Source: Escherichia phage vB_EcoM_ECO78. From it: a stretch of DNA of 64,000 nucleotides. Under the pieces are notes generated by a model. That model was not told the DNA's origin. It searched no databases and saw nothing but the letters and a program-made list of their open reading frames with translations. Positions 5,973 through 10,299 of the stretch are shown here, piece after piece (within the stretch, counting starts at the first letter, position 1; every line of letters starts with the position of its first letter). Both the position numbers and the translations under genes were made by a program. The stretch is from the sequence record PP526941.1. One strand, 5' to 3'.

Positions 5973-6189
5973 ATTGTTTTTCCGTTAAAACAGTAATATC
6001 GTAGTAACAGTCAGAAGAAGTTTTAACTGTAGAAATTTTATTATCAAAATACTCACGAGTCATTTTATGAGTATAATACTTTTTACCATAAATGATAATA
6101 GGTTGTTCTGGTCCTGGAACTTCTAACTCACTTGGGTTAGGAAGTGTAAAAAGAACAACGCCAGAAATATCTTTAAATCGTAAAATCAT
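5926..6189 (-). CDS. hypothetical protein (nrdA.2 position)
   Basis: 87 aa ORF packed between td and nrdA.1. Confidence 0.45.
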
Positions 6190-7046
6190 ATTGCCATTTT
6201 CCCTTTAATTGCTGGATGCGATTCATAATTTTCAAGGATAAAATCTTTCGGTTTCATGTATTCAGTTAACCAGTAAAGCTGTGTTTCGGTGTCACAATTT
6301 CCAAACTCTATAGGCCAATCAATTTTAAGTTCACATAGTTCTTTAGGCTCACGACGTAAAATTTCTTTACATTGCTCAGTATGATTCATATAGATGTGAG
6401 TATTACCACCAGAAAATATCAAATCTCCTGGGATAAGATTACACATCTTAGCCACAATATGCGTCAAGGCAGCGTACGAGGCAATATTGAATGGCAAGCC
6501 CAAGAAAACATCTACACTTCTTTGGTACCATTGTAAATCAAGATAACCATTACGCACATTAAACTGATAGAACATATGACAGGGCGGTAATGCCATTTGA
6601 TTGATTTCAGCTGGATTCCATGCTGAAACGATTTGACGTCGATCAGTTGGTAATTTTTTAATACGATCAATAGTTTCAACTAATTGATCCACACCACCGA
6701 AATCACGCCATTGTTTACCGTATATAGGACCAAGTTCACCACTATGATATCCTAGGTCTTTAGCCTGGTTTTCATAGTTATCGTCCCAAATAGTTTTACC
6801 TTGAATAAGACTACCATGAGTGCGAAGACGTAAATCATTAACATTGGTAGAACCGGAAATAAACCATAGAAGCTCAGCAATGCATGCATTCCAGGCGAGC
6901 TTCTTAGTCGTTACTGCAGGAAAACCTTTAGTTAAATCCCAGCGTAATTTAGTACCGAACAAAGCAATTGTTCCTGTGCCCGTTCGGTCATCGGTTTCAT
7001 AGCCGTTTTCAAGAATGTCTTTAATTAAATCTTGGTATTGTTTCAT
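6186..7046 (-). CDS. td: thymidylate synthase, uninterrupted
   Basis: 286 aa, [17 protein letters not shown]..., TS motifs; one continuous ORF; ATG at 7046. Confidence 0.9.
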
Positions 7047-7090
7047 TTAGCACCTTATATAAATTATAATACATTTTATGAAGCTAATAA

Positions 7091-7438
7091 TCAATACGGT
7101 TTAGCATCAAATTTTCTTTCAATTTCAGGCGTAAAATACAATTCTTTACCACGCTTGGAAAAGCGACCAATAATATGATAATTATTCTCATCAAACGTGA
7201 TATTGCCGATATCCATAGCTTTCAACCAAATATCGATATTTCTGTCAAGCTTTATATCAAAATTCCAATATGGAGAACTATTACCAAAAATACTACAAGC
7301 GGATTCAGTGAAACAACTGCTATAAATCTTGTCTTTAGGAACTACTAATTGATAGACACCTTTAATAAACTGAGGACCCTGCCATTTTGGTTGTTTCGCG
7401 TCTTTTTCTAATAGAATAGGGTAATAATTAAAATTCAT
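7091..7438 (-). CDS. hypothetical protein inserted between frd and td
   Basis: Track ORF 7091..7450 starts at GTG; first ATG at 7438 (MNFNYYPILLEKD...). I recognise no family. Confidence 0.45.
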   Translation of the reverse strand: MNFNYYPILLEKDAKQPKWQGPQFIKGVYQLVVPKDKIYSSCFTESACSIFGNSSPYWNFDIKLDRNIDIWLKAMDIGNITFDENNYHIIGRFSKRGKELYFTPEIERKFDAKPY

Positions 7439-7458
7439 ATTTTCCGCCACGTGTTATT

Positions 7459-8285
<827 letters not shown>

Positions 8286-9342: not shown

Positions 9343-9368
9343 AAAAAAAGGGGACCTCTAGGGTCCCC
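9343..9368 (-). terminator. rho-independent terminator after gene 32
   Basis: Minus strand GGGGACCC-UAGA-GGUCCCC followed by U7. Confidence 0.6.
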
Positions 9369-9390: not shown

Positions 9391-10299
9391 TTAAAGGTCA
9401 TTCAAAAGGTCATCCAGGTCCGTGTCATCAGCACTAGATGAACTGCCAGAGCTTGAGCTCATAAAATCATCTTCAGTTTTTGTATTGAAGTCATCAACAT
9501 TGAATGCATCCAAATCATCAGCAACTTTATCAGCTTTCTTAGCAGCAGTTGCTGCGGCCCCGCCCATCACAGCAGTTCCCATGACTTGACCGAATTTAGT
9601 GCTCAGTTCTTCAAACGATTTGAATTTATCTTTAGAAGTCATTTCAGAAAGGTCAACCATTTGTTCGAACAGTTCTTTCTGGAAAGATTCATCGTCAATG
9701 TTTGGAATCGCAGATTGATTCAGAAATTTAGATTCATCGTAGTTACTAAATCCAGAAACTTGTTTAACTTTCAGTACAAAGTTAGCACCTTCCCACGGAC
9801 AAGTTACATCAACCGGAGTTTCACCCATTTCAACATCAACTGCAATCATTGCATTGATTTTATCCCAAATTTTCTTACCGAAACGGTATTTAAATACTTT
9901 ACCTTCATTTTCTGGAGCAGCTGGGTCTTTTACAACAAGAATGTTAGCCCAGTAAGAAGTTTTACGTTTAACAAGACTGTACTCTTTATTGTCAGTGTTG
10001 TACAGATCATTTTTACTGATGTATTGACATACTGGGCAAGAATCGTAATCACCGTGGGTAGATGAACAGTTTTCAATATACCATTTACCATTTTTCTTGA
10101 AACCGTGATTTACAAGAATTGCGAATGGTGCTTGTTCATCATTTTTAGACGGAAGAAAACGAATTACTGCTTGACCGTTACCCGCATTGTCGAGTTTCAG
10201 TTTCCACTCGCCTTTATCTTCAGAAGAAAAACCACCTTTATTTCCAGCCAGTTTAGCCATTTGTGCAGCGAGTTCAGCAGTAGATTTACGTTTAAACAT
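9391..10299 (-). CDS. 32: ssDNA-binding protein gp32
   Basis: 302 aa, [50 protein letters not shown]..., acidic Ser/Asp-rich C-terminus. Confidence 0.95.

Follow-up and report, generated by a model that had tools for sequence, protein, structure and literature searches.

How is the junction between the genes for dihydrofolate reductase (DHFR, frd) and thymidylate synthase (TS, td) built in the T-even phages, and what is the small gene that occupies it in some of them? In T4, as stated in a first-pass annotation of the present sequence, the stop codon of frd overlaps the start codon of td, and the T4 record agrees (NC_000866; the end of frd is at 145109 and the td start at 145112, the overlap being ATGA). 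In Escherichia phage vB_EcoM_ECO78 (ECO78), an open reading frame (ORF) of 115-119 amino acids (aa), here called X1, separates the two genes, which flank it on the minus strand in one nucleotide-metabolism unit, and it is indeed an extra gene relative to T4, whose frd/td junction holds none. The window, that is, the whole stretch of ECO78 DNA that was analysed, is 64 kb long and comes from a T2-like Tequatrovirus distinct from T2. It is almost certain that X1 is a genuine gene, that it belongs to a family which is attached to frd, dispensable and constrained, and that the frd-td slot exists in three alleles; the action proposed below for its product is put forward much more tentatively.

Organization of the frd-td region in ECO78

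In the ORF listing X1 is a minus-strand frame, 7091..7450, of 119 aa with a GTG start, flanked by frd and td (Table 1). An internal ATG at 7438 gives a 115-aa protein, MNFNYYPILLEKDAKQPKWQGPQF..., and the protein read from this ATG is MNFNYYPILLEKDAKQPKW..., the form quoted in the first-pass annotation. This ATG is likely to be the start codon of X1, because the sequence GGCGGA lies 4 nt upstream of it and because distant homologues share the N-terminus MNFNYYP (or M..Y), in their case at an ATG overlapping the frd stop. The Shine-Dalgarno (SD) sequence proposed earlier is weak but plausible, and it is also kept in the X1 copy of Mosigvirus KMB38.

The td gene of ECO78 is uninterrupted and, unlike that of T4, contains neither a group I intron nor I-TevI. 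The promoter-like element in the X1-td spacer is overlapped by a sigma-70-like match; the number of promoter-like matches in the region is not above the shuffled expectation, and about 31 bp of the spacer, including the promoter-like part, are absent from the KMB38 cassette. In T4 and RB69, in which the slot is empty, translation of td can couple directly to that of frd, whereas td of ECO78 has a strong SD of its own and a promoter-like spacer in front of it.

Two further features of the neighbourhood may be recorded. An 81-aa ORF (8040..8285, minus strand, PHROG 3183) lies between frd.1 and frd, its stop codon overlapping the start of frd; in T4 the corresponding place is a mere gap of 72 bp, which makes the ORF a second difference in gene content between T2 and T4 beside frd. 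In addition, a strong terminator-like hairpin (GGGGACC...GGTCCCC followed by a T-run; 9350..9368, minus strand) is found just 3' of the gene 32 homologue (9391..10299).

Table 1. Features of the frd-td slot in ECO78, with copies of the alternative slot gene Y on other sequences
Feature	Position	Strand	Remarks
frd (dihydrofolate reductase)	7459..8040	-	193 aa; upstream of X1, whose family is always attached to it
Direct repeat TAAATGAAA, left copy	7457..7465	-	contains the frd TGA stop and a vestigial mini-ORF
Mini-ORF ATG-AAA-TAA (ATGAAATAA)	7454..7462	-	two codons; overlaps the frd TGA stop
Alternative X1 start, GTG	7450	-	adds 4 residues
SD-like GGCGGA, weak	7443..7448	-	purine-rich, 4 nt 5' of the X1 ATG; direct sequence reading, pattern-level evidence
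X1 coding sequence	7091..7438	-	115 aa and TGA stop, ATG start; basis: ORF listing, PHROG 1928, T2/RB14 identity, dN/dS
Promoter-like element, X1-td spacer	7063..7087	-	MotA-box-like TTAGCTTCA (7087..7079) and TATAAT (7068..7063); pattern match only
td SD, AAGGTG, strong	7056..7051	-
Direct repeat TAAATGAAA, right copy	7041..7049	-	contains the td start codon
td (thymidylate synthase)	6186..7046	-	286 aa; downstream of X1
Y copies	L020:1739-1945; L021:1704-1910; L004:3173-3379; L023:4670-4879		on other sequences

X1 as a constrained protein-coding gene

The X1 protein matches PHROG 1928 over its full length (E = 8.4e-36; residues 4-111 on profile positions 2-125/126) and does not differ at any residue from its T2 and RB14 counterparts (100% identity). 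X1 is thus a member of this family and the same gene, in size and position, as its hypothetical proteins RB32ORF229c of RB14/RB32, T2 XUQ82819.1 and phiR1-RT Gp236; in another T2 record (AY310907) the ORF is present and unannotated. The DNA of X1 differs between ECO78 and T2 at 18 sites, all 18 of them synonymous (dS 0.36, dN 0), and dN/dS is 0-0.05 across the Tequatrovirus copies, within which the protein hardly varies although the DNA is about 5% divergent; when X1 is compared with two metagenomic copies that are 63-66% identical to it, omega is about 0.1. Hundreds of genomes have the frame unbroken, and in 579 of the 580 records with a match at least 80% of the protein is covered. No long ORF overlaps X1 on the opposite strand in the ORF listing. 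X1 is therefore a genuine protein-coding gene, orthologous to the T2/RB14 hypothetical protein, and the substitution pattern indicates very strong purifying selection wherever it is present. Compared with T2 (PV648363), protein identity is 100% for X1, 95% for DHFR and only 86% for TS, and this mosaic conservation along 6186..8040 points to recombination within or near td.

It might be supposed that X1 is a non-functional remnant, either an ORF that is never translated or the decayed residue of a mobile element (a homing endonuclease, for example), for its SD is weak, homing endonucleases are abundant in the region and certain GenBank records call the homologues "putative homing endonuclease". 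This is extremely improbable. The exclusively synonymous differences from T2 effectively refute an untranslated or decayed frame, the integrity of that frame in hundreds of genomes speaks against it as well, and the AlphaFold2 model described below is a confident, compact fold. Moreover, no catalytic or homing-endonuclease motif had been recognised by eye, and the profile searches bear this out: X1 matches no Pfam family at E <= 10 (GIY-YIG, HNH, LAGLIDADG or any other), no NCBIfam family at E <= 1 and no PADLOC model at E <= 1, no Rfam family lies under it, and no nuclease is among the structural matches. PHROG 1928, the one family to which the profile search assigns it, is without an assigned function.

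Distribution of the family and gene order

A tblastn search of 50,697 phage records found the X1 protein in 580. In 362 of these the identity is at least 90%, and they are Tequatroviruses of Escherichia, Shigella, Yersinia, Salmonella and Citrobacter; the other 218, below 60% identity, are phages of Klebsiella, Enterobacter, Salmonella, Citrobacter, Serratia, Erwinia, Edwardsiella and other hosts. Remoter members of the family occur in phages of Proteus, Morganella, Providencia, Pectobacterium, Kosakonia and Yersinia. Only 43 matches came from an exhaustive HMM search, which covered 1.84 billion representative proteins, so the family is small and restricted to phages. Those retrieved are about 95-140 aa long, barring two short fragments and two long repeat proteins (P0036 and P0042), which owe their match to a short strand motif that recurs in them and looks Ig-like, and which were rejected as spurious. 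Protein P0017, from an NCBI contig of 100 kb, is a chimeric ORF of 195 aa, the N-terminal 155 residues of which weakly resemble an RlaP-type nucleotidyltransferase, while its last 40 residues are the C-terminus of the X1 homologue of Klebsiella phages; in one phage, it would seem, X1 has been rearranged or has taken up an insertion.

Homologues stand directly 3' of frd in Kanagawavirus, Jiaodavirus, Gelderlandvirus, Roskildevirus, Kagamiyamavirus, Tegunavirus, Gualtarvirus, Bragavirus, one recombinant Mosigvirus and others. The ORFs between frd and td were classified at every locus fetched, and at each of these that carries a family member, ECO78 included, the gene right after frd is such a member. 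The order is frd, X1, td in T2, ECO78 and Jiaodavirus; frd, X1, X2, td in Kanagawavirus PEi26, Gelderlandvirus and Kagamiyamavirus EcS1; frd, X1, X2, Y, td in Entb_45, two IMG/VR contigs and the Logan contig L023; frd, an X2-like gene, X1, td in Roskildevirus Cronus; and frd, an X-like gene, td in Tegunavirus phiR1-RT, with further genes between the X-like gene and td in Gualtarvirus MP1 and Bragavirus PM2, both of which lie outside Tevenvirinae. In all arrangements save the T2 type the start of the first member overlaps the frd stop by 1-23 nt. X2, tandem to X1 in many genera, is a divergent paralogue of it (hhalign probabilities 81-97%; PHROG 1928 at 1.6e-37 and 4.4e-16) with an insertion directly after the invariant tryptophan; no X1 paralogue was found among all the ORFs of the ECO78 window. 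T6 lies outside the set of loci classified, and in it a hypothetical gene of the same span fills the frd-td slot.

Against distant genera the identity is 33-63% for X1, 46-51% for DHFR and 73-83% for TS, which is consistent with long-term co-inheritance of X1 with frd at about the rate of divergence of DHFR. The family is an old one that does not extend beyond the T4-like (Straboviridae) phages of Enterobacterales. Weak matches in BFVD led to Aeromonas phage phiAS5, and the part of its genome fetched contains neither frd nor a family member. In Entb_45 frd is annotated as two pseudogene fragments (L004:2002-2516; a frameshift, possibly a sequencing error), and X1, X2 and Y downstream are intact. 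Directly after td, EcS1 (L028:3202-3960, minus strand) and phiR1-RT (L029:3350-4078, minus strand) have a free-standing homing-endonuclease gene on the strand opposite td and overlapping its 3' end, annotated as I-TevI in the former and "homing endonuclease" in the latter.

Alleles of the slot and history of the junction

The alleles were read from a spread sample drawn from the 518 records matching the flanks. The X1 allele, with 352 records in which the 801-bp query is covered to at least 80%, accounts for roughly two thirds of the Tequatrovirus records. About a quarter (some 135 records at >=95% identity) carry Y, an alternative occupant unrelated in sequence to X1, which encodes a basic protein of 68 aa (PHROG 9550), overlaps its neighbours by ATGA at both ends and is seen in Sf21, a51, the PYps phages and others. 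Kanagawavirus and contig L023 have Y in addition to X1 and X2, and copies at 40-43% identity are also found in Phapecoctavirus genomes. The third allele is the empty one (T4, SG1, vB_EcoM_112 and F1, and RB69 in Mosigvirus). X1 is dispensable, because T4, RB69 and the Sf21-type phages live without it, and the empty T4/RB69 junction is a minority allele, T4 being the exception. In Mosigvirus KMB38, X1 is present at 94% identity, so slot alleles cross genus boundaries by recombination. A strict tie between loss of X1 and the td intron (co-conversion by I-TevI) was rejected, since the intron is found with all three alleles: with X1 in IME340, with Y in fFiEco06 and PYPS2T and with the empty slot in T4 and F1, besides its presence with the hypothetical slot gene of T6.

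On either side of the T2-type cassette stands a copy of the 9-bp direct repeat TAAATGAAA; the two copies match perfectly and are 416 bp apart. Pairs of random 30-bp windows at this spacing shared a 9-mer in 0.6% of trials, so the repeat is probably a footprint of recombination. T4 and RB69 have exactly one copy, which reads straight into td (...TATAAATGAAACAATACC), and the T4 junction is the ECO78 sequence minus the 416 bp that separate the copies. The X1 and empty alleles are thus one recombination event apart, between the two copies. The mini-ORF in the left copy resembles a td start that has been duplicated and disabled (ATGAAACAA), and it could serve in termination and re-initiation ahead of X1.

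In the first-pass annotation X1 had been taken for a lineage-specific insertion. Read as an insertion into an ancestral, overlapping frd/td junction, it has several observations in its favour: the repeat includes the td start, its left copy runs into a stop codon like a disabled td-start duplicate, RB69 and T4 have the identical empty junction despite diverged flanks, X1 of the T2 type does not overlap frd and has spacers of its own, unlike that of all other genera, and its G + C content is 32% as against 38% in frd and td. However, lineage specificity does not survive the synteny comparison over T-even and other genera. The same protein is present in T2 and RB14 and in the 362 records at >=90% identity, same-slot homologues directly follow frd in many genera, not all of them in Tevenvirinae, and their divergence keeps pace with that of DHFR, most records have the X1 allele, and the T6 slot, too, holds a gene, if a hypothetical one. 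In addition, deletion between the same repeats, or at recurring ATGA junctions, explains the empty and Y-only alleles equally well. An origin of X1 by such an insertion is accordingly quite unlikely. The footprint itself is neutral as to direction and fits either deletion of X1, giving the T4 allele, or re-insertion of the cassette into an empty junction; at most, within Tequatrovirus, the cassette was put back into an empty junction by recombination. In L023, the fullest arrangement, all four junctions are ATGA-type overlaps, and such overlaps would offer microhomology for the deletions that yield the Y-only and empty alleles.

Protein features and predicted fold

Members of the family are hydrophilic and mildly basic (median pI 8.6). 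W19, G91, K95 and G97 are invariant throughout, and Q16, G27, Y29, F93 and F102 are at least 90% conserved. Some GenBank records name the protein "putative dihydrofolate reductase", but X1 matches neither DHFR_1 nor the R67-type DHFR_2 domain nor an SH3-like fold, and a likeness seen by eye between KWQGPQFIKGVY and the R67 DHFR motif AWQGQIVGWY was dropped, being unsupported by Pfam or by the fold search. The sole borderline profile match in the PDB, the ABC ATPase TagH, was rejected as chance because it weakened from E 0.003 with 17 sequences to 0.08 with the deeper profile of 44 and lay inside the nucleotide-binding domain.

The AlphaFold2 model, built from the 17-sequence alignment, has a pLDDT of 82.7 and a pTM of 0.76, and its predicted elements are E6-12, E27-34, E48-50, E62-64, H68-76, E80-82, E86-96 and E99-104. 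Their order, three strands, a helix and a beta-hairpin (beta1-beta2-beta3-helix-beta4-beta5), is that of the OB fold. The structure-based search recommended in the first-pass annotation did bring up OB folds in Foldseek-PDB (Stn1-Ten1, RPA32/14, RuvA domain I, anticodon-binding domains of aminoacyl-tRNA synthetases and SSBs), but none of them with significant similarity to the model (E >= 0.64, TM about 0.3), and the BFVD matches are only uncharacterised proteins of T4-like phages, including the Cronus paralogue. The likeness, below significance as it is, is suggestive of an OB-like barrel or possibly a new fold. From the predicted topology, the motif QxKW would fall in the beta1-beta2 loop and GrFxKxG in the beta4-beta5 hairpin, which form the ligand-binding face of OB folds.

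Possible function of X1

Nothing was found in the literature under the ORF names or the PHROG number, and the only relevant data concern Gp236 of phiR1-RT, the product of the gene right after frd. Gp236 was one of the 94 hypothetical proteins that were left for screening once the virion proteins had been set aside, neither a conserved domain nor an HHpred match was found in it, and when cloned in E. coli it gave a relative CFU (transformation efficiency) of 0.401, the cut-off for toxicity being 0.4; it is not among the four proteins confirmed as toxic (Mohanraj et al. 2019, PMC6893735). As we read the same paper, Gp236 was undetected in the LC-MS/MS proteome of the phiR1-RT virion. On this reading it is not a structural protein, and it is at most mildly deleterious to the host.

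Since X1 is small, soluble and dispensable, strongly constrained, coupled to frd in an early operon and devoid of an enzymatic signature, we infer a non-catalytic binder. X1 would be soluble, mildly basic and not an enzyme, would have an OB-like beta-barrel and be produced pre-replicatively from the DHFR mRNA by translational coupling or re-initiation, and would act by binding a conserved partner through a face that may comprise the invariant W19 and K95/G97 and the near-invariant Q16, Y29, F93 and F102 in the beta1-beta2 and beta4-beta5 regions. The most likely partner would be DHFR, the dNTP-synthesis complex or nucleic acid, and X1 could modulate the early nucleotide-precursor/replication machinery without being required for it. 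The family's co-location and stop/start overlap with frd would be compatible with a place in the dNTP-synthetase complex of T4. That X1 is a non-catalytic binder made together with DHFR, with the phage nucleotide-precursor/replication machinery or nucleic acid as its partner, is a tentative proposal, possible rather than probable. The narrower version, in which X1 (with X2 where present) is a non-covalent adaptor, a beta-barrel without a solved relative, that docks on phage DHFR and links it to TS or the dNTP-synthesis complex, as a detached equivalent of the junction in bifunctional DHFR-TS enzymes, is improbable.

A close rival to the favoured phage-partner reading, itself rather unlikely, is a host-directed or anti-defence role, in which X1, as a small early binding protein, would block some host factor (for instance a component of anti-phage defence or an enzyme) or turn it to another use, and the slot would be a hot spot for accessory genes. 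Most characterised small non-essential early proteins of T4 do target the host, the slot is polymorphic within one genus (X1, Y or nothing), Y is shared with the unrelated Phapecoctavirus, tandem duplication and divergence into X1 and X2 are common, and the family is found only in phages of Enterobacterales; the efficiency of g236, right at the toxicity cut-off, can be counted on the same side. On the other hand, X1 keeps to a single locus in at least 12 genera and evolves as slowly as DHFR, unlike arms-race proteins, and this slow evolution and long residence are the reason why phage machinery or nucleic acid is favoured as partner over an arms-race target. Furthermore, X1 matches no PADLOC model, g236 is absent from the confirmed toxic proteins, and a host target is indicated by no result. 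The phage-partner explanation as a whole, observed and inferred parts taken together, seems to us nearly balanced between right and wrong, leaning slightly to the latter.

Significance and comparison with known systems

The existence of X1 is not new, because hundreds of T-even genomes already list it as a hypothetical protein and PHROG 1928 includes it. What the analysis adds is that the reference phage T4 is atypical at the frd-td locus, that few small ORFs of the region are under constraint as strong as that on X1, which is attached to frd across the Straboviridae of enterobacteria, and that three circulating slot alleles provide natural, isogenic-like comparisons between T2/T6, the Sf21-type phages and T4. 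If X1 is a partner of DHFR or the dNTP complex, it bears on the long-standing question of how nucleotide synthesis is organised in the T-even phages; if it acts on the host, a conserved new early effector is added.

Among known proteins, X1 is likened to the small OB-fold proteins (the RPA14/RPA32 core, Stn1-Ten1, S1/cold-shock-like domains and HIN), which have the same predicted order of elements and a size of about 100-120 aa and predominate in both structure-search lists, and the tandem paralogues X1 and X2 recall OB heterodimers such as RPA32-RPA14. A second comparison is with the bifunctional DHFR-TS of protozoa, in which DHFR is followed by a junction (linker) segment of about 60-110 residues and then by TS. 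Unlike that junction, X1 is a separate polypeptide, is dispensable and may be followed by other genes before td; by analogy, though, the phage operon may be seen as the same order, DHFR, a small middle piece and TS, with the three products expressed together.
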